The position numbers were made by a program, and so were the translations under genes. A stretch of DNA of 64,000 bases from Deltaproteobacteria bacterium (lineage in GTDB: Bacteria > Desulfobacterota > GWC2-55-46). Of this stretch, positions 2,341-22,800 are shown piece by piece (positions within the stretch are counted from its first letter, which is position 1; every line of letters starts with the position of its first letter). The notes below the pieces were generated by a model that saw only the letters and a list, made by a program, of their open reading frames with translations, was not told the origin of the DNA and made no database searches. The stretch spans positions 128,326 to 192,325 of the forward strand of contig JACOUO010000011.1 in NCBI GenBank assembly GCA_016177845.1, in the 5' to 3' direction.

Positions 2341-2345
2341 TTGTT

Positions 2346-4411: not shown

Positions 4412-4427
4412 TTTCCTCCTACTGGGA

Positions 4428-5357: not shown

Positions 5358-6667
5358 CAGCTCTGTGCCTGCGCAGCAACCATCTGCTCGGCTGATTTTT
5401 TTACTCTTGCAGCCTTATCGGTTATAGCCCTGGATACTGATATCAGGGCTATAAGCATGTAGAATATGACCTTTATCTGATCCCAATATGACACGCCCAT
5501 GAACGAGATTATGTGAACAAAGAGTGAAGCGCCCAGGCCCCACATGACTTTTTGCATGGCAGGTGTCTTTTTAAGAGATTTGACAGCCTTGCCGACTGAT
5601 TGAAAAGAATACGAGAGTATTGCTATGAACAGGGCAAGGGTTATCATGCCTCCGTCAACTCCGACCCTTACGAACTGGTTTGTAACATCAAAAAGGTAAT
5701 ACCCCCAGCTGCCGGTGGATTGGACGCCGACAAGCCACCATTCACCGACCCTTTTTATGAACTGGTCGACAAGGTGAAACCTGTGATAGGCGGTTGAGGC
5801 TCCAAAGACTTTTATCTTCATTATAAGCGACCAGACAGGCGCTTTCATAACTATGTGCAGAAATATGAGCGTAAAGACAAGGCCCCATCTGAAAAGCCTC
5901 ATTTGATTTCTGAAGTGCCACATGGTAAGAGCGAAAAAGCCCGCGGCATAGGCGAGGGCAGGGCCGCTTGATGACGAGGTGAGCATTATAAATGTAGCCG
6001 AGATAATGCCTGAGATCATTAAAAAACTGCCGTAGCCTTTCATGTGCCTTAAGTAATAAAACATTGGCACAAGCGCAGCCCCGAAGCTGCCTGCCGTAAT
6101 CGGGTGTCCGAACGCGCCCTGACAGCGCAGCTTCCCATCGCGAATAGGCGTGAATTCAGGCACTCCGCCGAATACGAAAAACGGGTTTCTCCCGGTCCTC
6201 CACTCAATGACCATAGCAATTGCAACAGGAATGCTTATTATCGCAAGGGTCTTTACCACCCAGGCTATGTCATCATAGTCCCTTACGAGAAATCTGACGA
6301 GAAAGTAAATCCCTATAATATCGAATGAGATGCCGAGCCTGTTTATGAACGCGTCCCCGGTGCGCCAAAGCAGGGTATAGGCGACTACGCCTGAGATTAC
6401 ATACCATATCATCACCTTATCTATTTTGTTGAGAGTGATATGGTACTCTGACCTAGTTATTACCCGCAGCCAGCCGAACAGGACAAGAATCCTCAAGATA
6501 TAGAAATCCAGCGAGGCTATCAGTATCCTCTGCTGCATGGGCATAAAAACCACAGCAAACATCAGAGGCACTATCGCAGCCCTTCTCGGCAGTAACAGCA
6601 TGAGAAGTCCTGAAAACAGCGTAAAAGCAAGCGCTGCAGGGTGTATCGGTATTATGTAATGGTCCAT
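5357..6667 (-). CDS. Polytopic membrane protein, O-antigen ligase/Wzy-like (PEP-CTERM-locus 'O-glycosylation ligase'-like)
   Basis: 436 aa with at least 10 predicted TM helices and a large loop containing RNPFFVFGG...RCQGAFGHPITAGSFGAAL, reminiscent of Wzy_C / O-antigen ligase families. Its position inside the EPS locus fits a polymerase/ligase. It could alternatively be a divergent exosortase-associated membrane protein. Confidence 0.5.
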   Translation of the reverse strand: MDHYIIPIHPAALAFTLFSGLLMLLLPRRAAIVPLMFAVVFMPMQQRILIASLDFYILRILVLFGWLRVITRSEYHITLNKIDKVMIWYVISGVVAYTLLWRTGDAFINRLGISFDIIGIYFLVRFLVRDYDDIAWVVKTLAIISIPVAIAMVIEWRTGRNPFFVFGGVPEFTPIRDGKLRCQGAFGHPITAGSFGAALVPMFYYLRHMKGYGSFLMISGIISATFIMLTSSSSGPALAYAAGFFALTMWHFRNQMRLFRWGLVFTLIFLHIVMKAPVWSLIMKIKVFGASTAYHRFHLVDQFIKRVGEWWLVGVQSTGSWGYYLFDVTNQFVRVGVDGGMITLALFIAILSYSFQSVGKAVKSLKKTPAMQKVMWGLGASLFVHIISFMGVSYWDQIKVIFYMLIALISVSRAITDKAARVKKSAEQMVAAQAQS

Positions 6668-6678
6668 TTTTTTCCTGA

Positions 6679-7719
6679 TTACGCTAGGTATCTGTAGAAA
6701 AGCCCGCCAAGTATCCTGTTTGAAAATACAGGCATTTTTTTAAGCATGCCGCTTGCCAGCCGGTTCAGTGCGCTTCCTTCTCTCTTGAGTTTCTCTCTTC
6801 TCTCAGGTATGAATACATACCCCATCTTTATCTTTTCCGCGCCCCATCTTGATTTATATTCCATAAGCCCTGTATTACCGGAAAAAGTCCTGCCAAAATC
6901 AAATTGCCTGAAGCCGCAATTAACTGATGATTCTATCGCTTTCCACATAAGGAGCTGGTTTGGCCCAACATTTATGAACTCAGGGTCTGAAGCGCCGAAC
7001 TTATAGTATGCGGTGTCCTTGTATTTCAAAAGCACTATGCCAGCAAGGTTCCTGGAATCCTTTGTGGCAAGGAGCACAGAGGCCATGTCCCTGGGATTGA
7101 GGACCTCCCAGATGTTCCTGAAAAACCTGAAAGGCTGAACAGGCACCCCTTGTTTTCTGCGGGTCTTGAGGTGCAACTCGTAGAACGCGCGCATGTGCTC
7201 AAGTGATGTGCCTTCAACGATCTCAATTCCGTTCTTCTGTGCTTTTTTTATGGGGCGCTGAATGCAATCCTTATGCAGCGAGCGTAGTAAGGCTTCTGTA
7301 CGGCAGCCAAGCTTAAGAACAAAATTGAAGTAGTCGTCCTCCTGATTCCGTTCAATTCCGTCAAGCCTGTATGCTCTAAGCTCCAGTGATTTTACGCCTC
7401 GCTTTTTCCGCTCGGATTCAAGCTCTGCCATAAGAGCATTGAATTCATCAGGGCCCGAAACGAGTGGATCGCAGCAGTCTGAAAATGGATATGAGATAAA
7501 CCTCTTGCCTGAGATCAGGCTCGAAGCAAGCACAAGCGGAACAGCGCTTATGATTTTTCCATCGGCTTCGCTGACAAAATAATCAGTTTTAAACCCATAA
7601 GTCTTCTCGATTACCTCATGCCAAGCCCTGTGATGATATACAGTGCCAAGGGGATGGTTTTCGACAAATGAATTCCAGTTGTCCTCTTGGATGGAGTTTA
7701 TGTCTAAGAGTGAGAACAT
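6679..7719 (-). CDS. FemAB-family protein, PEP-CTERM system-associated type (GNAT-fold aminoacyl/acyl transferase-like)
   Basis: 346 aa, MFSLLDINSIQEDNWNSFVENHPLGTVYHHRAWHEVIEKTYGF..., the canonical N-terminus of the FemAB-like proteins found specifically in PEP-CTERM/XrtA loci (TIGR03019-like). Confidence 0.75.
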   Translation of the reverse strand: MFSLLDINSIQEDNWNSFVENHPLGTVYHHRAWHEVIEKTYGFKTDYFVSEADGKIISAVPLVLASSLISGKRFISYPFSDCCDPLVSGPDEFNALMAELESERKKRGVKSLELRAYRLDGIERNQEDDYFNFVLKLGCRTEALLRSLHKDCIQRPIKKAQKNGIEIVEGTSLEHMRAFYELHLKTRRKQGVPVQPFRFFRNIWEVLNPRDMASVLLATKDSRNLAGIVLLKYKDTAYYKFGASDPEFINVGPNQLLMWKAIESSVNCGFRQFDFGRTFSGNTGLMEYKSRWGAEKIKMGYVFIPERREKLKREGSALNRLASGMLKKMPVFSNRILGGLFYRYLA

Positions 7720-9033
7720 TTAAAAATTCAACAGCCTTCTTACGAAATCACCGAAGTTGATGGAATCAACATCAGAGGAGATGGTAAAGGCGCTTGCCGC
7801 TCCGTCAGGCCATCTCCATAAACGGAGCAGGGGAAAGGTGGAATTATCGATTGATTCGAGGAGAGGGAGCTTGTCTTCTTCCCTGAAAATCTCAAATCCT
7901 CGAATGAAGAGGGTCTCTTTAACCTCGTTTTTGGCGCGCTGAACAAAAAAACCTTCGTTAACGAGGAAATGCTCCAGACTTTCCGATGCCTTTTCAGAAA
8001 TGTTTATCATATGTTTTGAAGGATTATCAGATTCGAAAATGATTTCATTCTCAGCGGTCCAGTCAATGGCAGCTATCCTGTAGGTCTTGAAAAAGTATGG
8101 CCCTGAGCCGTCATTATTTGATTTAACAAGGATAGTTGACGAGGCAGGAGCGGATATTTTTATGCTTGATATTCCAGCTTTTTTTTGAAGCGCCCATTTT
8201 GACCGGCTTCTCATCAGCCACCATTCTGATATCTCATTAAGTCCGGCAACCCATACTTTGGCCCTGTTTTTTCCGGTCTCTTCGAGAGTTTCTTTTATGG
8301 AGCTTCTGATGTACCGGAATCTTTCAGGATGGAAAAGAAGGTGGAACAATTCGCCGCGTTCGTGTATGTCCTTGAAGATTCGTCTCCAGATATTTGTGAT
8401 ATCGGAATTGTTCTTAATCCTCAATCTCTCGTAAATCATCTCATCATCAGGCGCGGTGATAGGTATGTCGATGAGCCTGTCTATAAATCTCGGCACTGAA
8501 ACCGAGGAGCTTGCATCAAGGATTTTGTAGATATGTCCGAGCTTTTTCAGATGGTTCCGGCTATGTTTGTCAGTACCGATGTTTTTTTCCCACCTAATTA
8601 CATTATTGCTGGTCCAGACATACGGGCTTGAGACAAGAGCGTCTATCGTGTGAGTATTATAACTCAGGTACGGACACCTGAACCCCCGAACAGGCATCCC
8701 GTATTTCTCAAAATTCTCAAAACTTCGCCTGATTATCTCTATCTGCTCATCCCTGTTTTTCATCTTCAGGTTGGTATGAAAAAAACCATGCGCCGCGAAC
8801 TCATGGCCGTTCTTGAATTGTTTAATGAAATTCAGATGTTTATCAAGAAGGCTTGCCGTTATGCAGAAAGTCACCTTAGGTTTTGTCCCGTTGAACTCTT
8901 TTTCAAGATAGGACATCATCTCCGCGAATCTTCTCTTCCCGAATGTATACCTCCAAATTATCTGAGCGGAACGTTCCAAAGCATGGAGCGTGCCTTTGGT
9001 CTCAATAATATGTTTTAAGAATTGTTTGAGCAA
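7720..9033 (-). CDS. Polysaccharide deacetylase family protein, PEP-CTERM-locus subfamily (with an extra C-terminal domain)
   Basis: 437 aa. The region KVTFCITASLLDKHLNFIKQFKNGHEFAAHGFFH...FRCPYLSY matches the NodB-like deacetylase domain with a divergent first motif, as seen in TIGR03006-like proteins. A ~170-aa C-terminal extension is present. Confidence 0.7.
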   Translation of the reverse strand: MLKQFLKHIIETKGTLHALERSAQIIWRYTFGKRRFAEMMSYLEKEFNGTKPKVTFCITASLLDKHLNFIKQFKNGHEFAAHGFFHTNLKMKNRDEQIEIIRRSFENFEKYGMPVRGFRCPYLSYNTHTIDALVSSPYVWTSNNVIRWEKNIGTDKHSRNHLKKLGHIYKILDASSSVSVPRFIDRLIDIPITAPDDEMIYERLRIKNNSDITNIWRRIFKDIHERGELFHLLFHPERFRYIRSSIKETLEETGKNRAKVWVAGLNEISEWWLMRSRSKWALQKKAGISSIKISAPASSTILVKSNNDGSGPYFFKTYRIAAIDWTAENEIIFESDNPSKHMINISEKASESLEHFLVNEGFFVQRAKNEVKETLFIRGFEIFREEDKLPLLESIDNSTFPLLRLWRWPDGAASAFTISSDVDSINFGDFVRRLLNF

Positions 9034-10229
9034 GTTTGCCGCTCTGCAATGAAGTTGGCAATTGCGTCAGAGATGCGCTCCTGCTGCTCAGAGGTAAGGT
9101 CAGGGAACATAGGCAGAGATATGATTTCCTTTGTGACTTTTTCCGTTACGGGCAAGTCGCCATGAGTATAGCCAAAGTGCGCGTAAGCCTTCTGAAGATG
9201 CAGGGGGATTGGATAATGCAGGCCTGTTGAGAGGTCAATACCTGAAAGCTGTTTCTGTAAATTATCCCTGTCCTGTACGCGTACCACATAAAGGTGGTAC
9301 ACAGCCTTCGACCATGAAGGCTCATAGGGCGTCACTACATTTCCGCCCGCGCTCAGCCGCTCGTTGTAAAAAAGGGCGTTTGCCCTTCTTCTGGAGTTCC
9401 AGTTGTCAAGGTGTTTCAGTTTTACTGAAAGGATGCCTGCCTGAATGGCGTCAAGCCTGCCGTTGTAGCCTTCGATCTCGTGGTAGTATTTCGTGACCTG
9501 TCCATGGTCCCTGATCATTCTTATTTTTTTTGCTATTTCTTCGTTATTGGTCGTTACCGCGCCGCCTTCGCCGAAAGCGCCAAGATTTTTACCGGGATAA
9601 AAGCTGAAGGCCGAGGCAATCCCGACAGAGCCGGCCTTTTTCCACTCATTTTCTCTTCTTGAAAAATAGCTCGCGCCGTGTGCCTGGCAAGCGTCCTCTA
9701 TAACGAGCAGGTTGTATTTTTCCGCTAAATCCATGATAGAGTCCATATCAGCCATTTGTCCGTAGAGATGCACCGGGATTATCGCGGCAACAAGTTTTCC
9801 TGTCCTCAGGTCTACAAGCCTGCCTGTCTGATGATCGGTCTCGCACTTCGTCTCAAAATACTCCTTCAGTATTTCAGGCGACAGGTTATATGTTCGCTCG
9901 TCAATATCTACGAAAACAGGCGTGGCGCCGCACTGCGTGATAGCCTCGGTCGTTGCTATAAAGGTATTTGCAACTGTCACTACCGCATCCCCTTTATTGA
10001 TGCCTGCGGCTAAGAGTGCAAAACGAAGGGCGTCAGTGCCGCTGCCTACCCCGATGCAGTAAGCCGTGCCGCAGTAGTCGGCAAATTCTTTTTCGAACTC
10101 CTCAACAACAGGTCCGCCTATGAATTTACCTGTCCTTAACGCCTCTCTGAAGACAGAGACGAACTTTTCCTCTAACTTCTTATGAGGTTCTATGAGGTCC
10201 AAAAACGGTATGGATTTTGAATTACTCAT
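9015..10229 (-). CDS. DegT/DnrJ/EryC1/StrS-family PLP-dependent sugar aminotransferase (WbpE/PglE-like)
   Basis: 404 aa with an aminotransferase class-V-like fold. A conserved Lys-containing region (SFYPGKNLGAFGEGGAV) is present. Confidence 0.85.
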   Translation of the reverse strand: MSNSKSIPFLDLIEPHKKLEEKFVSVFREALRTGKFIGGPVVEEFEKEFADYCGTAYCIGVGSGTDALRFALLAAGINKGDAVVTVANTFIATTEAITQCGATPVFVDIDERTYNLSPEILKEYFETKCETDHQTGRLVDLRTGKLVAAIIPVHLYGQMADMDSIMDLAEKYNLLVIEDACQAHGASYFSRRENEWKKAGSVGIASAFSFYPGKNLGAFGEGGAVTTNNEEIAKKIRMIRDHGQVTKYYHEIEGYNGRLDAIQAGILSVKLKHLDNWNSRRRANALFYNERLSAGGNVVTPYEPSWSKAVYHLYVVRVQDRDNLQKQLSGIDLSTGLHYPIPLHLQKAYAHFGYTHGDLPVTEKVTKEIISLPMFPDLTSEQQERISDAIANFIAERQTCSNNS

Positions 10230-10734
10230 TTGTTATGCTCCTTAAGATTTTAGCGGGATTTCCTGCGACAATTGAATTGGCAGGCACATCTTTTGTCACA
10301 GTGCTGCCTGCTCCTACTATTGCGTTCTCGCCTATTGTAATATTGCTTAGTATAGTCGCCCCGGAGCCTATCGAAGCCCCTTTTTTTACGACAGTCCTTT
10401 CAACTTTCCAGTCATCATCTGTCTTAAGCTCACCGTCTTTGTTAGTAGCGCGGGGATATGTGTCATTTATGAATGTTACATTATGTCCGATAAAAACATT
10501 GTCCTCCACTATGACGCCTTCGCATATGAAAGTATGGCTTGATATCTTGCAGTTATTGCCTATGTCCGCATTTTTTTGGATCTCGACAAACGCCCCGACC
10601 TTTGAGTTAGCTCCTATGGAGCAGCCGTAGAGGTTTATAAATTTCCCCAGCTTTACATTCTCACCAAGGCTGACATCATCCGAGACACTTATCTGGTTTA
10701 TCTCCTCACCGTTCGGCATGGCACTGGATTTCAT
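10222..10734 (-). CDS. Hexapeptide-repeat (LbH) sugar N-acetyltransferase (WbpD/PglD-like)
   Basis: 170 aa with repeated [LIV]G-x-x-x-x hexapeptide motifs throughout. It overlaps the aminotransferase and oxidoreductase genes. Confidence 0.8.
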   Translation of the reverse strand: MKSSAMPNGEEINQISVSDDVSLGENVKLGKFINLYGCSIGANSKVGAFVEIQKNADIGNNCKISSHTFICEGVIVEDNVFIGHNVTFINDTYPRATNKDGELKTDDDWKVERTVVKKGASIGSGATILSNITIGENAIVGAGSTVTKDVPANSIVAGNPAKILRSITNE

Positions 10735-11732
10735 AGTTTCACCATCCTCCCGTTGTTTTTAAGGGATTCGTCGCATGCCTCAAGCATCCGTACTACCCTA
10801 AGCCCGGCATGCCCGTTGTTGAACGGCTCCTCATTTTTATTTATGCAGTCGACAAAATACTGCGTCTCAAGCTTCAGGGCCTCTATCTGGTCAACCTTCG
10901 GGGCCCACATGTCCCCTGAGCGGTAATTGACCAGCAGGTTATATATGCCCTCGCTGTTCGTTATCTCCACGCCCCTGTCATAGACCTTTATCTTTTCATC
11001 CGCGTCCACATCGTTCCACATGAGCATCTTTTTCTCTCCGCCTATGAGCGTAGTCCTGAGCTTGACAGGGGAGAGCCAGTTCACATTGAGATGCGCGATT
11101 ATGTTCTTGGAAAAATACACCATTATGTACGCTATATCTTCCTTAGAGTTGATGTGGGCCTTGCCGGAGGCCGCAACTGCGTCAGGCTTCTCCTTGATCA
11201 GATAATCCATTATTGAGAAATCGTGCGGCGCAAGGTCCCATATGACATTCACATCATGCTGGAACAAGCCGAGGTTGACCCTTGTTGAGTCATAGTAATA
11301 AAGCTCTCCGAGGACATCATCCTCTATTATCTGCTTGATCTTTCTTACCGCGCTGGTAAACAGAAATGTGTGGTCAACCATGATTTTCAGATTTTTTTTC
11401 CCGGCAATTTCTATAAGTTCGGCTGCCTGTTTTGTGTTTGAAGTAAAAGGCTTTTCTACAAAGACATGCTTTCCGTTAAGGAGCGCCTGTTTTGCAAGCT
11501 CATAGTGAGTTGAAACGGGTGTGATGACCGTAACAAGATCGATATCAGGTGATTGCACTATTTCTGCGCTGTTCTCAGTTATCAGCAGGTTGGGATAATT
11601 TTTTCTTGCCCTCTGAGCTGAGAGCGGGTTCTTGTCACATATCGCGGCAACTTCCGCCCCATCAATCATATTGAAGTTCCTGACTATGTTCGGACCCCAG
11701 TAACCGTACCCAATTACGCCGACACGGATCAT
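10731..11732 (-). CDS. Gfo/Idh/MocA-family NAD(P)-dependent sugar oxidoreductase (WbpB-like)
   Basis: 333 aa with an N-terminal Rossmann motif MIRVGVIGYGYWGPN and ...EKP motif. Together with the two neighbouring genes it forms the classical trio for making a 2,3-diacetamido / 2-acetamido-3-amino UDP-sugar. Confidence 0.8.
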   Translation of the reverse strand: MIRVGVIGYGYWGPNIVRNFNMIDGAEVAAICDKNPLSAQRARKNYPNLLITENSAEIVQSPDIDLVTVITPVSTHYELAKQALLNGKHVFVEKPFTSNTKQAAELIEIAGKKNLKIMVDHTFLFTSAVRKIKQIIEDDVLGELYYYDSTRVNLGLFQHDVNVIWDLAPHDFSIMDYLIKEKPDAVAASGKAHINSKEDIAYIMVYFSKNIIAHLNVNWLSPVKLRTTLIGGEKKMLMWNDVDADEKIKVYDRGVEITNSEGIYNLLVNYRSGDMWAPKVDQIEALKLETQYFVDCINKNEEPFNNGHAGLRVVRMLEACDESLKNNGRMVKL

Positions 11733-11769
11733 TTTTTACCTCTCTGTTGGTTCATTCAATTGATGATTA

Positions 11770-12939
11770 TCAGTATGCGCCCTTACTCGAAAGCATTGAG
11801 AACGGGGTAAGGAAAAGGAGTTTTATGTCGAGCCAGATGGACCATTCATCGATGTACCTGATGTCCATCCTTACCATGTCGTTGAATGTCGTAGAACTTC
11901 TTCCCTTAACCTGCCACAGCCCTGTTATGCCCGGCTTTACATCAAGAATTCGCCTGCGGTGCCATGCCATGTAGTTTTCAAGTTCGTAAGGAATGGGAGG
12001 GCGGGGGCCTACAAGCGACATGTCACCTTTAATAACATTGAAGAACTGGGGCAGTTCGTCTAAGCTCGTTTTCCTTAGAATTCTGCCAAGGGGAGTTATC
12101 CTGGGGTCGTCTTTTATTTTATATATTTTTTCTTCAGCGCCGTGATTGCCGCCAAGGCTGTATTCCTTCTGCTCACGAATCAGTTTTTTAATGTATTCAG
12201 TATGTATTTTCTCACTGCTGCCTACATACATAGACCTGAATTTCAGGAACACGAAAGGCTTGCCGTATTCTCCTATCCTTGTCTGCCTGAAAAAAACAGG
12301 CCCTTTTGAAGTGAGTTTGATGATGACAGGGACAGCAATGAAAAAGGGTGAAAAGATTATCAGCCCGATAAAAGCGCCGAATACATCCATTACCCTTTTT
12401 ATAAGAAAAGAGTTTTTTTTATTTTCTTTTTTTTTTAACAGGTCAGGATAAAGCTTAAAGTCCAGCGGCAGTGATTTATCCCCTCCGCTTTCTTCAGGGA
12501 ACAGGTGAAACGATATTTTAAGCCTGTTAAAGAGAGTTGAGCTGAGCGCGGGCAAATTGGTAAGCGCGGTGAATATCTTCTGCTTGATCGGTTCTGCCTC
12601 ATCTGTTTTTACATCGGTGAATATTACTCCTATTATTCCGTTGCATTTGTACCAGCCTTTGATATCAACTTCCCTTGTCGTCGTGTTTATGGCGTAACCG
12701 ATGCCTTTGATGATCTCTTTTGCCGAAGGCTCATAAAGGATGTTCTCAAGGTCCAGCAGCATGAGCAGGAACGACTTTCCTGACCTTTCGGCTCTTTTTC
12801 TTTCCAGGTACACCATTTCATGAAAGTAATCCTCTACATAAAGGCCGTTGTCAATATCCTGCAGAAAATCAGTGCTGTGAAAATGGAGAGAACCCTGCTT
12901 TCTGAACTTGTTCCGGTATTTGAAAAGAAAATTTTTCAT
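11770..12939 (-). CDS. Polyprenyl-phosphate glycosyl-phosphotransferase (PglC-type monotopic 'bacterial sugar transferase'). It is fused to an N-terminal degenerate GGDEF-like domain
   Basis: 389 aa. The C-terminal ~200 aa have one re-entrant hydrophobic segment followed by ...SLVGPRPP...PGITGLWQV, as in PF02397. The N-terminal ~165 aa align to the GGDEF fold: ...LERKRAERSGKSFLLMLLDLENI...REVDIKGWYKCNGIIGVIF. The GG[DE]EF motif is replaced by YKCNG, but an RxxD motif (REVD) is retained at the I-site position. Confidence 0.8.
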   Translation of the reverse strand: MKNFLFKYRNKFRKQGSLHFHSTDFLQDIDNGLYVEDYFHEMVYLERKRAERSGKSFLLMLLDLENILYEPSAKEIIKGIGYAINTTTREVDIKGWYKCNGIIGVIFTDVKTDEAEPIKQKIFTALTNLPALSSTLFNRLKISFHLFPEESGGDKSLPLDFKLYPDLLKKKENKKNSFLIKRVMDVFGAFIGLIIFSPFFIAVPVIIKLTSKGPVFFRQTRIGEYGKPFVFLKFRSMYVGSSEKIHTEYIKKLIREQKEYSLGGNHGAEEKIYKIKDDPRITPLGRILRKTSLDELPQFFNVIKGDMSLVGPRPPIPYELENYMAWHRRRILDVKPGITGLWQVKGRSSTTFNDMVRMDIRYIDEWSIWLDIKLLFLTPFSMLSSKGAY

Positions 12940-12992
12940 GGTTCATTCCCGTTTTGATTGAAGCGGACAGAGTTCAGATGAGCTTGGATGGG

Positions 12993-13000
12993 CTACCGCC
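12993..13000 (-). promoter_or_regulatory. ops-like element (GGCGGTAG) in the 5' leader of the priming sugar-transferase gene
   Basis: Reverse complement of 12993-13000 is GGCGGTAG, the core of the ops/JUMPstart element recognised by RfaH-type NusG paralogs. It lies ~50 nt upstream of the sugar-transferase start codon and immediately downstream of the NusG-paralog gene. Confidence 0.4.
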
Positions 13001-13090
13001 GTTCAGGTGCATTTAAACCCGCCTGAGAGAAAATTCAGTTGTGCTGTTAAAGAGAACAATAGGGACTTTTTAAATAAGCCTTATTCAAAC

Positions 13091-13588
13091 TTAAATGCGT
13101 GAAAGCATTCCTGCGTCAACCACCACGCGGATATTTATGGCCTTAAGAAGAATACTGACCCTCTCAATGCCTTGCATCTCTTTTTCAAATATTGCTTCAA
13201 AGCCCTCAAAAGGCCCGCCTTTTATGAGCACCCGGTCACCGGGCTCGAAATTCTGCCGGATCGTGAGAATGCCTTTATCAAGCCTTGAGACAATTGAGCC
13301 GATGATATTGTCAGGCACCGCTGACGGCCCCTGGTCATTGCCAAGGACATTTTTTATTCCTCTTGTATAGCGTATCAAGTGATAATCCCTTAATCTGTCG
13401 AATTTAACGAAGACATAACTGGGGAAAAGAGGAGAGATAAGTTCAGTCAGTTTTCTCCTGTAGAATTTACGCTCCATTATCTTCGGGTTCAGTATCTGAA
13501 AACCCGCGTTATTAAGCTTGTATGAGACCGCATCCTCATTTCTCGGTTTTGTATAGACCAAATACCAGTTTGAATCTGAGCGCTCCAT
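13091..13588 (-). CDS. NusG-family paralog (RfaH/UpxY-like operon-specific transcription antiterminator)
   Basis: 165 aa. The N-terminal NGN domain reads WYLVYTKPRNEDAVSYKL...VFVKF. The C-terminal KOW-like region reads FEPGDRVLIKGGPFEGFEAIF. It is embedded inside the polysaccharide operon with a 355-bp untranslated region upstream. Confidence 0.85.
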   Translation of the reverse strand: MERSDSNWYLVYTKPRNEDAVSYKLNNAGFQILNPKIMERKFYRRKLTELISPLFPSYVFVKFDRLRDYHLIRYTRGIKNVLGNDQGPSAVPDNIIGSIVSRLDKGILTIRQNFEPGDRVLIKGGPFEGFEAIFEKEMQGIERVSILLKAINIRVVVDAGMLSRI

Positions 13589-13943
13589 TCGAAAATACGC
13601 CTCCTATGGCTTTTAAAGAAAACTGTAAATGCATCGCAAGGATCTCCTGAGCGGAAATCCCATTTCAGCGCGACTGGCCTTTCAGATTTGTAGAGTTGAG
13701 TAGTTTATATCGGCATACTCTGTTGTTTGAACCGGTTGGTCTGAAAAGTCCCTGGCTCTTTATGCATTTGCCGCAAGCGCAGGAAAGAGCAGCGGTCTGG
13801 ACAATGTGGAATGACAATATTCTGATTTTTTACATTCTGCCGAAACGTGCAAGAGGCCCATTGGTATCAGGTATATGGGTTTATTCCCTGAGTGTATTTG
13901 GGATTGCATTGAAGGACTCCTTTTCCTGTGGTGCCGGTTTTTT

Positions 13944-14951
13944 TTAGTAAGAGTACTTCATCATATGCTCTGCGGCTCCGTTTAGGACTATTCCCATAAG
14001 ATTGTGCTTCGGGAGTGAATTGATAGCCTTTTTCACAAGGTCCTTTGGCGTCTTTCCAGCCCTTACTATGAGCATGAGAGCGTCAACGGATTTCGAAAGT
14101 ATATTCATATCGACAAGAGGCAATATCGGTGGAGAATCCACAATCACATAATCAAAATCCTCTTTAACGGAATCGAGCACTGTCTTCATGTGCGGTGAAT
14201 CGAGAAGGACCGAAGAATTTTTAACGCTGCAACGGGCAGGAAGAAAATAGAGATTGGTGCCTTCAAGCCTGTTTATTGCCGAGCGCAGGTCTATCTCGCC
14301 TTTAATCACATCGACAAGTCCGTAAAGCCTTCCCATATCGAGGTAGTTTGAAGAAATGGAAGGGTTCCTGAAATCTCCCTCGATAAGAAGGACTTTTTTC
14401 TTGAATTCTGTTGCAATCACATAAGAGAGGTTAAGTGCAGTCATTGTCTTTCCCTCTCCCTTTACCGCGCTTGTTATCGCGAATGTCTTATATGAATTTT
14501 TCAGGCTTATCTGTTCTATTTTGGTGTAGAGTATCCTGTATTTTTCAGCTATCATCGGGTCGGTGCTTTCCATCACCAGAAGCGGCTGCTTGAACGATAT
14601 CTTATCTTTGAACGCGCCGACCTCCGTGTATTCCTCGAATATATCCTTGCCGGCATTTACTGAATTCAGGTCAACGACTTTCTCCGAAGCCTGAGGAATA
14701 TTATCCCTGCGGCCTCGGAGCGTAGAGTCGTAGGCGCTCCTTTTGGCCGGATCCATCAGCGTCTCAAAGATGCTTTCGAGCTGCGCCAGTTTTTCCTTCC
14801 TCTCTTCTGCCGTATACAGGGAGTAGACCGCCATGTTCCCTTCGCTGTAGAGGCCCCGGGCCTTCCTGTATGCGTCCTCTATTTCTTTCGGGTTGGCACC
14901 CTGGACTATCTGAAGGATCTCGTAGTAATTCTTTTCATTGTTTTGCATCAT
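13944..14951 (-). CDS. BY-kinase-like (Wzc C-terminal-like) P-loop ATPase with an N-terminal J-domain-like segment lacking HPD
   Basis: Walker A AITSAVKGEGKTMTALN, Walker A'/B VLLIEGD...YVIVDSPP and C-terminal tail ...MKYSY. The N-terminus YYEILQIVQGANPKEIEDAYRKARGLYSEGN...LMDPAKRSAYD aligns to a DnaJ J-domain, but the HPD tripeptide is replaced by SEG. The six-frame ORF extends to 15110; start chosen at ATGATG (14951), which has an AAGGCGAG SD and avoids overlapping the upstream gene. Confidence 0.7.
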   Translation of the reverse strand: MMQNNEKNYYEILQIVQGANPKEIEDAYRKARGLYSEGNMAVYSLYTAEERKEKLAQLESIFETLMDPAKRSAYDSTLRGRRDNIPQASEKVVDLNSVNAGKDIFEEYTEVGAFKDKISFKQPLLVMESTDPMIAEKYRILYTKIEQISLKNSYKTFAITSAVKGEGKTMTALNLSYVIATEFKKKVLLIEGDFRNPSISSNYLDMGRLYGLVDVIKGEIDLRSAINRLEGTNLYFLPARCSVKNSSVLLDSPHMKTVLDSVKEDFDYVIVDSPPILPLVDMNILSKSVDALMLIVRAGKTPKDLVKKAINSLPKHNLMGIVLNGAAEHMMKYSY

Positions 14952-14962
14952 TTTTGCTCGCC

Positions 14963-16003
14963 TTAAAATTGGTTTATGGTTGAAAAGCCGTTGGATCCCT
15001 TGTTCTTGTTCAGGAGATTGTTCAGGCATGACTCTATGCCCCTTGCCGCCCCTGAGCTTGAGTAATGTATGGTTAAAGGCTTTCTGTTGCGTATTGAATC
15101 GCTCACGCATTCTTCATAAGAGACTGACCCTAAGTATCCTATGTCTATCCCGAAGTAGTCAGAGCATGCCCTTTTGATGGAAGAGCCGATCTCTTTGTCC
15201 TCGTTTTTTTTCATCTGGTTCATGACCATTGAAATATTTGTGTTTGATACATGCTCCCTTAGAACGCGGCCCTGCTCGGGGTCAAGGGTGCTGAGCTGGT
15301 TGAGTATGTCTGATACTGTTTTTACGCGCTGGGACCATTTTTCGCTGAAAACTTTTTGAAGCAGGTCTTTGAGTTTTCCGTCATCCTGCGCGTCAGCAAG
15401 GGTCTTTATCTTTCTCAGAAAAAGGCATTTAAGGAACCTGTAATTATTCTCTATCGTGGTCGGTTCAGGGGTAGAGAGTATTATCCCTTCATTCGATATC
15501 AGGAACATGTCCAGTAAGGTTGAGGATGTGCCAGGCCCGATATCAAGGATGGCGTAGTCATAGTCTACCTTCCTGAGCGCGTCCTTAAGCCTTGCCACCT
15601 TATCCGGCTTTATGTCTGCCACATCGAGTGAGTCCTTTGCGCCGCTTATAAGGTCAAGGTTCGGAATAGGGGTCTTTACTGCAAGAGATTGCAGGTCAGG
15701 CACTTCTTCTTTCAAAAAGCTTGAGAGCGCTGTCCTGCCGCCATCAACCCCGAGGAATGTGTGCAAGTTTGCCGCACCGAGGTCAGCGTCTATCAGAAGT
15801 ACTCTTTTCTGATTTTTTGAGAGAAGTATCCCAAGGTTCGTGGCAAGAAGCGTCTTACCGACCCCTCCTTTGCCGCCGCCTACAGCCCATATTTTAGTAC
15901 CGTATATTGATGGATACTCCATGGGCGTGTAGGGAACGTGCTGGGTATCCTCGGCTATGTCATAGCTTTTGAATAGTCTTTTAAACCAATTGAAGTTAAG
16001 CAC
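14963..16003 (-). CDS. MinD/ParA/FlhG-family P-loop ATPase
   Basis: 346 aa with a deviant Walker A VGGGKGGVGKTLLATNLG, and LLIDADLGAANL. A second SIMIBI ATPase sits next to the BY-kinase-like gene inside the EPS operon. Confidence 0.75.
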   Translation of the reverse strand: MLNFNWFKRLFKSYDIAEDTQHVPYTPMEYPSIYGTKIWAVGGGKGGVGKTLLATNLGILLSKNQKRVLLIDADLGAANLHTFLGVDGGRTALSSFLKEEVPDLQSLAVKTPIPNLDLISGAKDSLDVADIKPDKVARLKDALRKVDYDYAILDIGPGTSSTLLDMFLISNEGIILSTPEPTTIENNYRFLKCLFLRKIKTLADAQDDGKLKDLLQKVFSEKWSQRVKTVSDILNQLSTLDPEQGRVLREHVSNTNISMVMNQMKKNEDKEIGSSIKRACSDYFGIDIGYLGSVSYEECVSDSIRNRKPLTIHYSSSGAARGIESCLNNLLNKNKGSNGFSTINQF

Positions 16004-17531
16004 TTTCTTTCCTTCCTTTTATGACTCTGAGTTTGTTTTCAGGCCTCTGCTGATCCTTAAACGGAAAGATAGGGATGCTCGTAAGCACAGGCGACATAAT
16101 GACGCCTTCAAAATCCTCAGGTTTTCTGAAGGCAGGGTTGAGCACTTCGAAGAGAAGCACTAATCCTGCTCCTAAAGCCACACCGCCAAGCACGCCGTAA
16201 AGCGTGATGTATCCTTTATTGGGCCAGTCAGGCACCTGGGGGAGATATGCGTAATCGATAACCCTGAAGCGTTCGCCTTTCTGCCTTTTCTCAAGATTTT
16301 CAGCAAGCCTTGCGTTGAGTTTCTTTTCAAGGAGCGCCTGGTAATTGGCAAGCGATATCCTGTGGTCCCTTAGTATGTCGGCCTGCTTCTGTTCATTTGC
16401 AGGGGTATTGTCAATGCGTCTTTCATAGTCCTTTATCTGGCGCCTGATCTCGCTCTCGCGCTGGCGAAGGGCGGCAAGCTGCGATTTAACTGTCGAAAGC
16501 TCAACATAAACTGTCGGATTACGAAGTTCATTCTCATCGGTCTTTCCGTTCTGTCCAAGCTGCGTCTCAAGGTCTTTAATGCGCCTTTTAGTTATGATGA
16601 CATCAGGATATGACTCCTTGTACATCGAGAGCAGGGAAACGAGTTCGCCTCTTAATTTTTCAAGTTCAGCGAGTTGAGGGTTTATCGGCCTGCCTGTTGC
16701 GGCTGTAGGAGCGTAAGCCATCTGCTCCTGAAGCAGTATCCTCCTGTCATCTGTGCTCTTGATAGATGCCGAGACTGTCTGAAGCTCCATCTGAAGCCTG
16801 TCAAGGGTCCTCAGGTTTGCGTCAAGCTGTTCGGGAAGTCCTCCCATGTGAGTCTCTTTAAATCCCTTTATCTGCCTCTCAAGCTGTTCAAGTTCGGTCT
16901 TTGCCTTCTCAAGCTCGCTGCCGAGGAATTCGGAAGTGCCCTCAGCGTATTGTTCCCTTGCCTTAAGGTTCTCCTCTATGAAAAGGGAGGCGAGCTTGTT
17001 TGTGACCTGCATGGTTGTCTTTGGGTCTGTGCCTGTATAGTAGATGGAGAAGGCGTTGCCGCCGCTGCTGGAGCCTTTTTTGCTGCCTGTCGTGACTTCG
17101 GCGGCGACCTCAAATTTTATGTCGCTGCGCATCTGATCTATTATCACATCGCTTGTCGCAGCCACCTGTGCTTCACCGTGAGCGACCCTGTTGTAGAGCA
17201 TGCCAAGTCTTGTCGCAATGCCCGGAGATGCGTTCTCATACAGATTGAATTCTTTAATTATTTGCTCAAGCCTTGTCCTGCTCAGTATCTGCTGGCTCAA
17301 GACCGTCAGCCTCTGGCTGAACGGGGTCCTGTCGGTCTGGGGGACATACTCCTCGGGGACCTGCTGGTCTTCAGCCAATATGAGAGTGCTTGAGCTGTAA
17401 TATTCAGGCAATTTGAAGCTTACAAGAAGGCCTATGAGGCCGCCTATGATAATCGGGATTATCAAAAGCCATTTACGGTAATAAAAGATGGCCAGCTGAT
17501 CCAGAAGCGTCTTATTCTTAGTCTCTTCCAT
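15996..17531 (-). CDS. Polysaccharide chain-length determinant protein (Wzz/PCP-like, PEP-CTERM-locus subfamily)
   Basis: 511 aa with an N-terminal TM helix, a long coiled-coil periplasmic region and a C-terminal TM helix (YITLYGVLGGVALGAGLVLLFEVL). This is the architecture of polysaccharide co-polymerases (TIGR03007-like). Confidence 0.8.
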   Translation of the reverse strand: MEETKNKTLLDQLAIFYYRKWLLIIPIIIGGLIGLLVSFKLPEYYSSSTLILAEDQQVPEEYVPQTDRTPFSQRLTVLSQQILSRTRLEQIIKEFNLYENASPGIATRLGMLYNRVAHGEAQVAATSDVIIDQMRSDIKFEVAAEVTTGSKKGSSSGGNAFSIYYTGTDPKTTMQVTNKLASLFIEENLKAREQYAEGTSEFLGSELEKAKTELEQLERQIKGFKETHMGGLPEQLDANLRTLDRLQMELQTVSASIKSTDDRRILLQEQMAYAPTAATGRPINPQLAELEKLRGELVSLLSMYKESYPDVIITKRRIKDLETQLGQNGKTDENELRNPTVYVELSTVKSQLAALRQRESEIRRQIKDYERRIDNTPANEQKQADILRDHRISLANYQALLEKKLNARLAENLEKRQKGERFRVIDYAYLPQVPDWPNKGYITLYGVLGGVALGAGLVLLFEVLNPAFRKPEDFEGVIMSPVLTSIPIFPFKDQQRPENKLRVIKGRKESA

Positions 17532-17534
17532 TAA

Positions 17535-18692
17535 TTAAAACCTCCACTCCGGTCCTGTGAATGTCACATTCACAAATACCTGGTTTCTTGTGAGGCCGGT
17601 CCCGAAATTATCCTTTGGCCACTGTTGAAAATGCTGGACGCCCGCGCCGAATTTCATCCATCTCTTTGCCTGCCAGGTGGCCTGCGCGGAAGTGTCATAA
17701 GAGTTCATATCGACCCTTCCCGAAGGCTCGGTGCGGCTTTTGGCAAGCCCGCCTGTTACGGACAGGCTTATATCCCTGCTTAGCGTATGCGACAGTGTGA
17801 AGGAGAGCCTGTCGTTTATGTTTATCTCATCGGTCAGGCCTGTGGGGTTTGTCACAGCCCTTGAGTACAAAATAGCAATGGTTGAGTCCCTTAAGGTTTT
17901 TTCCAATCCTGCTGTAGCTGTCAGGAAGTAATCGTCCTGACCGCCGTCAAGCCCGCTGGCATAGACAACCCCTGCCGAGAGATCTACCTTCAGGGTCGGA
18001 TCGACTGTTTCCGCGATGCTGAAGAAAAGCGCGTGGCTTTCTATATCTTTATTGCCGTTGCTGTCAAAGCTGAAGTTAGTAAACTTGTAAGTGACGCTTG
18101 CCCTTCCTGCAGGGTTGTATTTATATCCTCCGGTCAATGATGCTGAATCTGTCCTCGTGTCGACAAGGGACTGTTCCTCGAAATCGAGATTAGTATCCCT
18201 GAGTGTGAGCCCGATGTCTATTTTCGGCCCAAGCTGATGGCCGATATTAAAAAAAACAGTGTTGGCTGAAATATCCGTTCTCACGACAAGTATCCCCGTT
18301 TCTGTCGCACGCAATGAGTCCTTTGTAAAATAATATGTGTCTCCCAGGCCTATCCTTGTCTTGTTCGACAGTTCATATCTTGCTCCGAGTGTGGCCTTAT
18401 GAGAGACGCTGTCGAGGTCAGTATCCTGGCTGTGATAGTCGGCATCAAGCCTGTAATAGGCGTCGATATCGTATCTTATTCCCTCTTTGGATGCCCTTAC
18501 CGCGGGGCTGACGGTTGAGATGAAATCACTGTCAGAGTCCTCGCTGTCGCTCCTGAATCTCACATTGCTGTCATACCGTTCCTCAAGGGAGAGGGAAGGG
18601 ATGATGCTGAAATTCTGGCTGCGGGCGTCATTAGCGGAACTGAGGGCAATAAACAGGGCGCAGAGCGCGATAAGTCCTCTTCTATGGTACAA
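17535..18692 (-). CDS. Outer-membrane beta-barrel protein, PEP-CTERM-system-associated type
   Basis: 385 aa with a signal peptide (LCALFIALSSANDARSQ), alternating amphipathic beta-strand pattern and a C-terminal ...GPEWRF aromatic terminus typical of OM beta-barrels. Its position between the chain-length determinant and the exporter matches TIGR03016-like proteins. Confidence 0.6.
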   Translation of the reverse strand: MYHRRGLIALCALFIALSSANDARSQNFSIIPSLSLEERYDSNVRFRSDSEDSDSDFISTVSPAVRASKEGIRYDIDAYYRLDADYHSQDTDLDSVSHKATLGARYELSNKTRIGLGDTYYFTKDSLRATETGILVVRTDISANTVFFNIGHQLGPKIDIGLTLRDTNLDFEEQSLVDTRTDSASLTGGYKYNPAGRASVTYKFTNFSFDSNGNKDIESHALFFSIAETVDPTLKVDLSAGVVYASGLDGGQDDYFLTATAGLEKTLRDSTIAILYSRAVTNPTGLTDEININDRLSFTLSHTLSRDISLSVTGGLAKSRTEPSGRVDMNSYDTSAQATWQAKRWMKFGAGVQHFQQWPKDNFGTGLTRNQVFVNVTFTGPEWRF

Positions 18693-19419
18693 AGATTGTA
18701 TCTCCCGGTTTAAGCACCAAGTTCCTGTCGGTTTTGCTGTCAGTGTCGATTATGTCATCGAAGCGCACGCTTATGCGCTCAGGCTTTGCGGATTTATCCA
18801 ACTTCTCCCTGATAAGTATCAGTTTGTTTTTGGATGCGAACGGGTTGAACCCGCCTGCCAGCGCGATTGCCTGTAGAAGGGTTGTCTTTCTCATCACTGT
18901 ATATGAACCGGGATTTATGACCTCTCCGAGGACATAGATCCTGTAGCTTTTTACTTCCTGTACTATTACCGAAGCCACTACAGTTTCCTGGTATTCCTTT
19001 AGACTCTCGATAATTGAATCACGGAGTTGCGAAGGGGTAAGCCCGGCTGCTTTCATGTCTCCGACAAGCGGAAGCGATATCATGCCGTCAGGGCGCACCA
19101 CGACGGTCTTTGACAATTCGGCATTCCTCCATACGGAGATCTCAAGCACATCTTCTATGCCGATAAGATATTCCGGGTCCTGCGCGACTGCTGCGGTTTT
19201 AGTGGCGGGCTTATCTGCGGTAGCTTCCTGCGCCGTAGAGGTTTTCTGGACGATTTTTTCAGCCGCCGCGTTCTTTACTGCGGCGTCTTTTTTAAGTGTC
19301 TTATCCGATGCTGTTGAGGGCTGCGGAATTAAAATGCCAAGTCCAAACAGAAAAAGTGCGGCTGCCAAAACACCTTTGAAACCCTGCGATTCTCTCATTA
19401 TCCCGTCCTCCATACTCAA
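18682..19419 (-). CDS. Polysaccharide export protein (Wza/OPX-like short form, PEP-CTERM subfamily)
   Basis: 245 aa with a signal peptide and the Poly_export motif region EYLIGIEDVLEISVWRN...PDGMISLPLVGDMKAAGLTPSQL, plus an SLBB-like domain. Confidence 0.8.
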   Translation of the reverse strand: MSMEDGIMRESQGFKGVLAAALFLFGLGILIPQPSTASDKTLKKDAAVKNAAAEKIVQKTSTAQEATADKPATKTAAVAQDPEYLIGIEDVLEISVWRNAELSKTVVVRPDGMISLPLVGDMKAAGLTPSQLRDSIIESLKEYQETVVASVIVQEVKSYRIYVLGEVINPGSYTVMRKTTLLQAIALAGGFNPFASKNKLILIREKLDKSAKPERISVRFDDIIDTDSKTDRNLVLKPGDTIFVP

Positions 19420-19430
19420 AGCTGATTTTT

Positions 19431-19823
19431 TTAGAGAAGCCTGAGCCCGGCTGAGACTATAGACCTCGAAACTTTTTTAGCCCACACGGCGCGGGCTGAC
19501 CTTTCCATATTGAGCGACTCTATGCATACCTTAAAGATCGTATCGACATCTATTGAGCTTCCGCTGTAGATAATGCCTGCGCCTTCTTCAGAGAAATCCG
19601 TAGTCTTTGCCTTTACCTCAGAGCCTTCTATGTAGAACTTAAGTTCAAGCTCCTTGCGTACCCTGCTTTTATTCCTTCTTTCGGAAAAAATATATCCGCA
19701 GTGAGGGCAGATGATGCGGCCCTCAGCAAAGGAGATGTAGAAAGCTTTATAGCAGGCAGGGCAGATTCTAAGTCGCATTCTTCTTGCCGATTGTTTGATT
19801 TGGTTTCTGCTGTTAGCGTTCAA
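19431..19823 (-). CDS. Zinc-ribbon + PilZ domain protein (putative c-di-GMP receptor)
   Basis: 130 aa. The N-terminus CPACYKAF...CPHCGYIF is a C4 zinc ribbon. PilZ motifs RNKSR (RxxxR) and DFSEEGAG ((D/N)xSxxG) are present. It is the last gene of the EPS operon, adjacent to the T2SS. Confidence 0.75.
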   Translation of the reverse strand: MNANSRNQIKQSARRMRLRICPACYKAFYISFAEGRIICPHCGYIFSERRNKSRVRKELELKFYIEGSEVKAKTTDFSEEGAGIIYSGSSIDVDTIFKVCIESLNMERSARAVWAKKVSRSIVSAGLRLL

Positions 19824-19962
19824 TTCGCGCGCTTCATATTATTTAAGGATAGCCGTACTTGAGAGTAAGGCAATCCATCGAAAGAATATTAATTGCGCAA
19901 AAAGTATTACGCCTGAATCTAATGCCAAGGCTTACGGGGGTTAGTAGGAAAGTATTAAAACT

Positions 19963-20007
19963 CCGCACCTATGCGGACAGACTGGCGCCTGTACGCATAG
20001 GTGCGGT
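19963..20007 (-). terminator. Strong hairpin (13-bp perfect stem), possibly a terminator or attenuator between gspF and the PilZ gene
   Basis: CCGCACCTATGCG-N19-CGCATAGGTGCGG, followed on the minus-strand transcript by AGTTTTAATACTTT. Confidence 0.4.
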
Positions 20008-20024
20008 TTGGAACTGAAGATTGT

Positions 20025-21230: not shown

Positions 21231-21245
21231 TTTATGTTTACTGTC

Positions 21246-22796: not shown

Positions 22797-22800
22797 CTGC

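Follow-up and report, generated by a model that had tools for sequence, protein, structure and literature searches.

The closest described counterpart of the system treated here is RfaH of E. coli, a specialised NusG paralog, together with its ops element. About 95% of recognised RfaH proteins are proteobacterial, and E. coli is the only species for which the mechanism of recruitment is known in detail; RfaH-like clusters beside envelope-polysaccharide genes, as well as RfaH matches in 23 phyla, have already been reported (Wang et al., PMC7593976). E. coli RNA polymerase pauses at C9 and U11 of ops, T11/G12 being the pause-inducing dinucleotide, and RfaH can load at C9, G10 and U11; in the complex, the flipped-out T6 enters a pocket formed by H20, R23, Q24 and R73 (Zuber et al., PMC5995543). 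The E. coli ops pause is hairpin-less (type 2), and the opsX site of Bacteroides combines a hairpin in the non-template DNA (GCG-AGC stems) with an upstream nascent-RNA pause hairpin that aids the loading of UpxY (PMC11685472). The main text of a 2026 preprint describes RfaH homologs with a predicted beta C-terminal domain as mostly encoded in or beside long operons, and proposes a model of cis recruitment (PMC13015549). Cis-encoded specialised NusG paralogs for long biosynthetic operons also include LoaP of Bacillus and TaA of Myxococcus. LoaP depends on a leader RNA hairpin. Here, we describe a 64-kb stretch of DNA (hereafter the window, from the 768-kb contig JACOUO010000011.1) of a metagenome-assembled genome (MAG) labelled 'Deltaproteobacteria', in which a polysaccharide locus on the minus strand carries a gene for a NusG paralog directly followed by the ops core GGCGGTAG.

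The protein is best explained as an RfaH-type specialised NusG paralog encoded inside the polysaccharide locus. In the reading that we favour, to which as a whole we assign a probability of roughly 0.7, a cis-encoded and probably non-autoinhibited RfaH-like factor would load at a hairpin-assisted ops pause and drive the 12.5-kb, 11-gene biosynthesis operon lying downstream.

Within the window, GGCGGTAG by itself is no more than chance, and its significance comes only from the comparison with relatives. It is present in two copies against 1.15 expected, a count also reached by 28 of 100 shuffles, and the other copy (54327, plus strand) lies inside a coding open reading frame (ORF). A total of 58 homologs of the paralog were collected, 46 of them at 50-68% identity and with the ORF intact. 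One genome per species was scanned, which yielded 80 loci (labelled L001 and so on); the close family comprises 33 loci, and the 31 having at least 150 nt of sequence 3' of the paralog gene were considered usable. An exact GGCGGTAG on the sense strand was found 60-277 nt (median 115) 3' of the paralog stop codon in 28 of the 31 usable loci; in the window the distance is 90 nt, with another 53 nt to the sugar-transferase ATG (12939). The remaining three are L027, where the element is 5' of the gene, L015, whose element is in the usual location but has C instead of T6, and L018, which has none. Across the 33 family loci, 29 matches fall in the 12.5 kb of downstream spacer and eight in the remaining 431 kb of strand-sequence, corresponding to a 125-fold enrichment, while the 45 more distant loci carry the 8-mer at the same background rate (0.017 per kb). 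The spacers around the element are otherwise unalignable among family loci, and the distance from the element to the next start codon ranges from 4 to 136 nt. In all four of the closest relatives (64-68% identity, fetched by exact protein look-up) the element lies between the paralog and the Bac_transf gene, as it does in the fully syntenic L085 and L086. The initial annotation had regarded the 8-mer as an ops-type element tied to this paralog, provided that it was not frequent at random positions; the enrichment in the spacers of relatives upholds this view, and the element can be taken as genuinely conserved.

The same figures bear on the simplest alternative, namely that a chance 8-mer happens to follow an ordinary or decaying NusG copy. 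The count of two against 1.15 within the window would agree with such a coincidence, but the 125-fold enrichment at a fixed place 3' of the gene, seen in 28 of 31 relatives, the score of only 41.9 bits with the NusG model (cut-off 135.7) and the intact ORF in 46 proteins at 50-68% identity already refute it.

The genomic setting of the pair is preserved as well. The labels of the relatives include Nitrospirae and Nitrospinota, and the loci follow two types of synteny. In type A (the window, L001-L008, L029 and L081-L086) the gene order is that of the window, with the Bac_transf gene directly after the element in all cases. In type B (L009-L023) a MinD-like gene, a tyrosine kinase, a further gene and a sugar transferase are followed by the paralog, the element and an amidotransferase or deacetylase, and the paralog abuts the preceding sugar-transferase gene. 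In both types the paralog occupies a junction, with a series of biosynthesis genes 3' of it. At least four MAGs contain one type-A and one type-B locus and a fifth contains two type-B loci, all of them using GGCGGTAG. Since the two loci of a genome share this core, the ops core cannot make the factor locus-specific, and the description of the paralog as locus-specific in the initial annotation is not supported.

When the 32 family sites were lined up on the 8-mer, positions 1-9 were invariant in all of them and position 10 was C in 31, giving the core GGCGGTAGCC. Position 11 is always a pyrimidine (T in 22 sites, C in 10) and position 12 a purine (G in 26, A in 6), after which the sequence continues as YCC. 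The majority 12-mer, GGCGGTAGCCTG, conforms to the consensus of E. coli, GGCGGTAGnnTG, down to the TG at positions 11-12. The full element consists of a covarying hairpin, then AAY, then GGCGGTAGCCYR. In the window the extended pattern AAYGGCGGTAGCC occurs once without mismatch, and no further site was found there by GGCGGNAGC, by the extended pattern at up to three mismatches or by the covariance model described below. Tandem hairpin-AAC-GGCGGTAG units, 39 nt apart, were observed between the paralog and the sugar transferase in L007 (4592 and 4631) and in L085/L086 (approximately 6583-6640), and L017, L014 and L021 have a second element either 5' of the paralog or 2.8 kb downstream. The idea that, as in some RfaH targets, the gene 3' of ops is without a Shine-Dalgarno sequence was also considered and dropped, the relatives being inconsistent in this respect (GGGAGG in L004/L005, none in L083).

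A stem of at least five pairs ends exactly 3 nt 5' of ops G1 in 15 of 27 non-redundant sites, against a background of 0-3 sites at most other positions and of up to 11 at the neighbouring sub-stem offsets (-18 to -5). The 3' arm most often reads GCACCTG across the family. The stems vary (CAGGTGC/GCACCTG, GGTGCG/CGCATC, AAGCCGC/GCGGCTT, GACAT/ATGTC, CGGGTT/AACCCG and CATG-CTCCGC/GCGGAG-CATG, with loops of 3-12 nt), and because their sequences differ between loci the hairpin is no sequence repeat. Ungapped and MAFFT alignments of the hairpin left the 5' arms out of register and were replaced by a covariance-model alignment. The model, termed R1, was built from seven in-register sites and recovered 46 sites in 645 kb, 44 of them on the sense strand of the paralog; in the window it has a single match (12983-13029, minus strand, 53.7 bits, E 2.9e-14). 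In the alignment of the 46 matches, which was fitted to the structure and is hence biased towards pairing, 90.4% of the cells are paired against 75.5% in shuffles, and none of 500 shuffles reaches the observed values. All eight model pairs show changes on both sides, that is, compensatory ones, and sliding the 3' partner by 1-3 columns lowers the pairing to 18-46%. Judging by this slid-partner control and by the separate position scan, the hairpin signal in the aligned sequences appears to be real.

A second stem, formed by GGCGG (ops positions 1-5) and CYGCC (positions 10-14) around a TAGC loop, can be drawn in 20 of 27 sites. In the window it would occupy 12986-13000 (minus strand) but is interrupted (CCCAT), as it is in five other sites (CCCA variant). 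The pyrimidine opposite G suggests pairing at the RNA level, given the tolerance for G-C and G-U. This raises the question whether the conserved block could be an RNA element acting on the mRNA independently of the paralog, with two adjacent hairpins serving as a processing or stability determinant or as a site for another protein that controls translation of the next gene, whose start codon is only 4-136 nt away. We regard this as quite improbable. The 8-mer is identical to that of E. coli ops, an RfaH-like gene on the same strand invariably accompanies the element across phyla, its base 6 covaries with a residue of the protein pocket (see below), and the second stem is broken in six sites, that of the window among them. 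Rfam contains a JUMPstart model; a scan of 12800-14000 on both strands at E <= 10 returned no relevant family, JUMPstart included, the sole match being a chance snoRNA.

The paralog corresponds to MBI1911408.1, annotated in NCBI as 'hypothetical protein' (exact-sequence look-up). Among the NCBIfam models RfaH ranks first (TIGR01955, 102.3 bits; NF006534, 95.3 bits), ahead of UpxY (NF033644, 68 bits, cut-off 100), LoaP (NF033641, 48 bits, cut-off 125) and NusG (TIGR00922, 41.9 bits, cut-off 135.7). The proteins of L001 and L009 behave alike, with RfaH best at 100-103 bits, while two other proteins in the locus set pass the thresholds: the Pseudoalteromonas protein of L074 as RfaH (200.6 and 166.3 bits) and one Bacteroidetes protein as UpxY. 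The neighbours of the paralog gene are polysaccharide genes and not secE or rplK. Both statements of the initial annotation regarding the protein are in line with these data. Its NGN domain is recognised by Pfam (PF02357, 62.7 bits), and the KOW domain, sub-threshold in Pfam (16.9 versus 22.3 bits), is supported by the alignment to RfaH and by a predicted barrel; the protein also appears to be a specialised paralog rather than the housekeeping NusG, with 102 bits for the RfaH model against 42 for NusG.

Structure comparisons point in the same direction. In a phmmer search against solved structures the best matches were E. coli RfaH chains (E 8e-18), and the alignment to E. coli RfaH covers residues 3-149, extending into the C-terminal domain without a gap over the N-terminal helix. 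AlphaFold2, run with a 26-sequence family alignment, gave a model with a mean predicted local distance difference test score (pLDDT) of 85 and a beta-barrel C-terminal domain (residues 119-158, block pLDDT 79-86). The top Foldseek match of this model, over 163 columns and full length, is 8phk_P, the fully recruited, active RfaH on the ops-paused complex, and autoinhibited RfaH entries align over the N-terminal domain only. The C-terminal domain is therefore predicted to be a plain beta-barrel and not the autoinhibited alpha form of RfaH, and the paralog is probably non-autoinhibited. The residues of interest for RfaH-type readout and autoinhibition were taken from the literature (Zuber et al., PMC5995543; Wang et al., PMC7593976). 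Of the residues contacting ops, K10 has its counterpart in K14 of the paralog and R73 in R76. Neither position varies in the 26-member family alignment, and in the wider locus set L003 has K in place of the arginine; H20 is replaced by K24 (mostly K or R in the family, also S and L) and R23 by N27, a variable position. Q24, which belongs to the T6 pocket, is replaced by A28, also variable. As for autoinhibition, E48 is replaced by S52 (mostly S in the family), and I93, F130 and R138 are retained as I96, F134 and R143.

An additional line of evidence concerns base 6 of ops and the residue at the R73 position. Exact GGCGGTAG was not found near the distant paralogs, many of which have a variant differing in one base at position 6. 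Verrucomicrobia-type paralogs (L048-L064) are associated with hairpin-GAAK-GGCGGCAGCTTG (C6), located 19-120 nt 5' of the paralog gene, and the Nitrospirae MAG of L035 has GGCGGCAGCCTG 3' of the gene. In Pseudoalteromonas and Colwellia (L074-L078) GGCGGAAGCGTG (A6) is found 150-262 nt 3' of what are true rfaH genes (200 bits with NF006534), with H20N and R23N in the pocket; the flanks of these five loci are identical, and their independence is low. A joint alignment with E. coli RfaH showed that the T6-associated paralogs (about 30 loci) have R at the R73 position (K in L003), while the C6-associated paralogs have T or N. With metagenome loci included, the paralogs next to GGCGGCAG have N, T, S or P and none has R (10 genome loci and 17 metagenome loci, the latter a subset of L097-L204). 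The metagenome loci stem from a scan for GCACCTGAAN-GGCGG[A/C/G]AGC that returned 120 stretches; 17 C6 matches lie just 5' of a same-strand NusG-like gene, and all 17 proteins carry N, T, S or P, never R. Matches were accepted as real only where TTG or GTG and a NusG-like gene follow, and all 32 A6/G6 matches as well as most C6 matches, having no NusG-like ORF nearby, were set aside as chance. The covariation between base and residue fits what RfaH-type readout of non-template DNA predicts, and the pairing of T6 with R, as opposed to C6 with N, T, S or P, resembles a swap of specificity that occurred in nature.

It is tempting to extend this to a wider proposal, which we put forward tentatively and hold with considerably less confidence than the reading for the window. 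RfaH-like factors and ops may form a cross-phylum system whose recognition code is simple and evolvable, the identity of the flipped-out base 6 (T, C or A) going together with that of the residue in the R73 position (R versus N/T/S), with a composite site made of a pause hairpin, RAAY and GGCGGNAGCYTG in 'Deltaproteobacteria'-labelled MAGs, Nitrospirota, Nitrospinota and Verrucomicrobiota, and with a non-autoinhibited factor that in the clade of the window would be loaded in cis, as it is made, onto the very polymerase that had transcribed its gene.

Whether polymerase reaches the element from the paralog gene is a further point. In the window, neither a sigma-70-like promoter nor a terminator was predicted on the minus strand from the tyrosine-kinase gene up to the sugar transferase, including the 90-nt spacer between paralog stop codon and ops, and read-through from the paralog gene is therefore the simplest reading; the paralog is likely to be mid-operon, as far as its sequence context can tell. 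Terminator-like sites on the minus strand within the 12.5-kb operon are no commoner than in shuffles. The same scan of L011 and L013 was also negative, although the terminator scan missed hairpins with T runs that were seen by eye in both. Such GC-rich hairpins with a T run lie between the paralog stop codon and the element in L011 (approximately 4520-4550), L016, L013 and L085 (approximately 6510-6530) and, if functional, would mean that transcription terminates beyond the paralog gene and that a promoter is located just 5' of the element. The gap 5' of the paralog measures 126-436 nt in nine syntenic loci and shows no conservation other than that of the ribosome-binding site and of a patch rich in A and T; the 355-nt gap of the window may hold the paralog's own promoter.

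These observations are relevant to a rival layout, in which the same factor and ops are at work but an internal promoter just 5' of the hairpin makes the paralog the end of one unit and the hairpin and ops the leader of a separate operon, so that the factor acts in trans as in the classical arrangement of RfaH. A T/A-rich tract 5' of the hairpin in many loci, TANNNT hexamers 8-12 nt 5' of the model start in 11 of 32 loci (0-2 at other offsets), the hairpins with T runs after the paralog gene in several relatives and spacers of 60-277 nt, which could hold a promoter, would all be compatible with it. The negative predictions for the spacer of the window and for L011 and L013 speak against it; moreover, the shortest spacers, with 60-68 nt from stop codon to ops including the hairpin, leave little room, and the type-B paralog, abutting the preceding gene, is itself operon-internal. 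On balance we consider this layout unlikely, yet clearly more probable than an RNA element independent of the paralog.

In the mechanism that we propose with read-through, RNA polymerase would leave the paralog gene and transcribe the short hairpin, AAC and then GGCGGTAGCC. The non-template GGCGGTAG would form a small ops DNA loop in the transcription bubble and the polymerase would pause. The hairpin stem ends 12 nt 5' of ops position 9 and 14 nt 5' of position 11, and the nascent RNA hairpin probably stabilises or positions the pause, as at Bacteroides opsX (a type-1 pause hairpin); alternatively, it could be a barrier to backtracking. The conserved 3'-arm sequence CACCTGAAY might also be recognised in the upstream DNA duplex, a mode of readout reported for UpxY. 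The N-terminal domain of the paralog would recognise G5/T6, which are exposed, by means of a basic pocket in which the equivalents of K10 and R73 are kept. The factor would then take the place of NusG on the polymerase and stay on, suppressing pausing and Rho-dependent polarity through the 11 biosynthesis genes. Targeting may rely on proximity in cis, the protein being made next to a polymerase about to pause, from a gene some 60-280 nt 5' of its own loading site. We infer pausing, factor loading and a cis effect at this element and, by analogy with the known factors, antitermination by the paralog. The least secure step is cis loading, which is suggested by the gene preceding ops at 60-277 nt and by a protein that is probably non-autoinhibited.

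A number of observations weigh against this reading. The ops of the window, GGCGGTAGCCCA, is a minority form with C11/A12 in place of the pause-inducing T11/G12 (CCCA in 6 of 32 sites). The stem of the window is modest, with five outer pairs (TCAGG/CCTGA) and a few inner ones, and its 66-nt fold is no better than shuffles (z = 0.15); since the hairpin of the window is thermodynamically unremarkable, the case for it is comparative only. The paralog scores below both RfaH cut-offs (144.5 bits for TIGR01955 and 124 for NF006534), and of the four side chains by which RfaH contacts ops two are changed (H20 to K, R23 to N). The beta conformation predicted by AlphaFold2 is also compatible with fold switching of the paralog. 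In some relatives the GC hairpin with a T run argues for a separate promoter over read-through. Finally, the covariation at base 6 rests on few independent lineages, namely one large Verrucomicrobia-like clade and L035, and has exceptions in L015 (R with C6) and in Pseudoalteromonas RfaH (R with A6).

Overall, the system would work like RfaH/ops and resembles UpxY/opsX in being encoded in the locus and in having a hairpin, and its kind is already known. With E. coli RfaH and ops it shares NGN and KOW domains in a protein of about 160 aa, the best profile hidden Markov model and structure match, an identical core GGCGGTAG with TG at positions 11-12 in most family sites, the K10 and R73 equivalents, and a long envelope-polysaccharide operon as the presumed target. 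It differs from E. coli RfaH in remaining under the equivalog cut-off (102 versus 144.5 bits), in the absence of conservation at H20, R23, Q24 and E48 and in the predicted beta C-terminal domain. In addition, the gene is in the locus directly 5' of its ops, whereas rfaH forms a monocistronic unit and works in trans, and the ops of the window family has a covarying hairpin 5' of it, whereas E. coli ops has none; the element of the window also lacks a match to the Rfam JUMPstart model.

As regards UpxY and opsX, a NusG paralog encoded in the polysaccharide operon and the possibility of several paralogous loci per genome are common to both systems. The covarying hairpin at a fixed spacing of 3 nt would be a likeness to opsX, although in the window the hairpin is weak and pausing would be assumed by analogy. 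On the other hand, the paralog scores 68 bits with the UpxY model (cut-off 100), no UpxZ-like gene follows but a sugar transferase, and the ops core is not diversified between the loci of one genome. The paralog is found mid-locus after six export genes and 5' of its ops, whereas upxY is the first gene and lies 3' of the leader ops. The analogy with UpxY drawn in the initial annotation consequently gains from the hairpin 5' of ops, similar to the opsX pause hairpins, and fails in the order of gene and ops, which is the reverse. For the monomorphic beta-RfaH homologs of the 2026 preprint, too, the C-terminal domain is predicted to be a beta-barrel and the gene is within or adjoins a long operon of lipopolysaccharide or exopolysaccharide type; the main text of that study contains nothing on GGCGGTAG, an ops just 3' of the gene, a pause hairpin, Nitrospir*, Deltaproteobacteria or exopolysaccharide (PMC13015549). 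The targets of LoaP and TaA, in contrast, are polyketide clusters with no GGCGGTAG ops, and the LoaP score of the paralog is 48 bits against a cut-off of 125. In the literature searched we found nothing linking RfaH or NusG paralogs with PEP-CTERM or exosortase loci, and nothing on canonical ops in these lineages or on an ops just 3' of the factor gene.

The features of the locus are listed in Table 1. The 165-aa ORF, the 355-nt gap and the 8-mer are all located where the initial annotation had placed them, and its estimate of about 13 kb of downstream genes agrees well with the eleven same-strand genes found.

Table 1. Features of the polysaccharide locus in the window.
Feature	Coordinates	Strand	Basis
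RfaH-like specialised NusG paralog, 165 aa	13091..13588	-	Profile scores, fold prediction, structure matches
Gap without translation between tyrosine-kinase-like gene and paralog, 355 nt	13589..13943	-	ORF coordinates
Ops-type element GGCGGTAGCCCA (8-mer core GGCGGTAG at 12993-13000)	12989..13000	-	Sequence match
Candidate nascent-RNA pause hairpin, TCAGG...CCTGA	13003..13026	-	Comparative support; 3' arm GCACCTGA agrees with the consensus of the family
Composite element: hairpin, AAC, ops	12983..13029	-	Covariance-model match
Polyprenyl-phosphate sugar transferase (Bac_transf), first gene 3' of ops	11770..12939	-	PF02397 226.8 bits, TIGR03025 285.8 bits
Biosynthesis operon, 11 genes, 12.5 kb (presumed target)	385..12939	-	Annotation; target status inferred from position 3' of ops
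Export/assembly module 5' of paralog, same strand	13944..19823	-	Profile annotation; order kept in relatives
Tyrosine-autokinase-like gene (DnaJ + AAA_31), stop at 13944	13944..15110	-	ORF and domain matches

The start of the paralog ORF is preceded by a perfect AGGAGG ribosome-binding site. The export module comprises, in order, genes for a PilZ protein, a polysaccharide export protein, an outer-membrane barrel, a chain-length determinant, a MinD-like ATPase and the tyrosine-kinase-like protein. The biosynthesis operon begins with the sugar transferase, a GFO-type dehydrogenase, an acetyltransferase, a DegT aminotransferase, a deacetylase and a FemAB-like gene, and ends with a 436-aa protein, three glycosyltransferases and an AsnB-type amidotransferase; the gaps between the eleven genes, all on one strand, are -19 to +37 nt. 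The 436-aa protein (5357-6667, minus strand), in the middle of the operon, has no match in Pfam or NCBIfam and is by its position a candidate polymerase or ligase. XrtA/PEP-CTERM models of NCBIfam are the best or a strong match for the chain-length, tyrosine-kinase, export, FemAB and amidotransferase genes, as the PEP-CTERM context assumed in the initial annotation would lead one to expect; all the XrtA-associated scores are, however, under the cut-off (e.g., TIGR03007, 234.5 versus 278.85 bits; TIGR03018, 146.8 versus 230.65 bits), and no exosortase gene was found among the ORFs scanned in the window. 'PEP-CTERM-type' seems a fair, if unproven, label for the locus.

Some neighbouring features may also be mentioned. 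The polysaccharide locus opens, as does the syntenic L085, with a gene for a small PilZ-domain protein (29.3 bits; 19431-19823, minus strand), which hints at an input from cyclic di-GMP. Between this gene and gspF, at approximately 19960-20010 (minus strand), a long perfect hairpin (CCGCACCTATGCG...CGCATAGGTGCGG) followed by AGTTTTAAT is likely to be an intrinsic terminator that divides the polysaccharide locus from the operon for type II secretion (gspC-D-E-F, 20025-25811). The tyrosine-kinase-like protein carries an N-terminal DnaJ (J) domain (31.5 bits), a fusion also present in L081 and L085; its ORF as called overlaps that of the MinD-like ATPase (14963-16003, minus strand) by 148 nt, and its true start is therefore probably further downstream. 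The sugar transferase has an extra N-terminal domain of 170 aa (12430-12939, minus strand) that is kept in type-A relatives and gives only a faint GGDEF match (E 0.13, 12.5 bits). Beyond the amidotransferase gene, a further ORF on the minus strand (1-240) continues past the left end of the window, where its C-terminus lies; it has a signal peptide (MKKLGYLAAVVLFLALPAISSA...) and may encode a secreted or PEP-CTERM-type protein.

New with respect to the described systems is the occurrence, in uncultured lineages, of the exact E. coli ops core together with a sub-threshold RfaH-like 'hypothetical protein', the fusion of this core to a UpxY-style pause hairpin and the position of the factor gene immediately 5' of its own loading site. 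The natural sequence pairs bear on several open questions, namely the specificity code of ops (T6/R versus C6/N,T), the selectivity of cis loading by non-autoinhibited RfaH-like factors and the relation of hairpin-assisted to hairpin-less ops pauses. The interest of the system would rise if the code linking base 6 to the pocket and cis loading hold up. Furthermore, the covariance model offers an annotation route for such control points in PEP-CTERM-type exopolysaccharide loci of environmental bacteria. If cis loading in the clade of the window is true, these bacteria would provide a living example of the proposed ancestral mode of RfaH recruitment.

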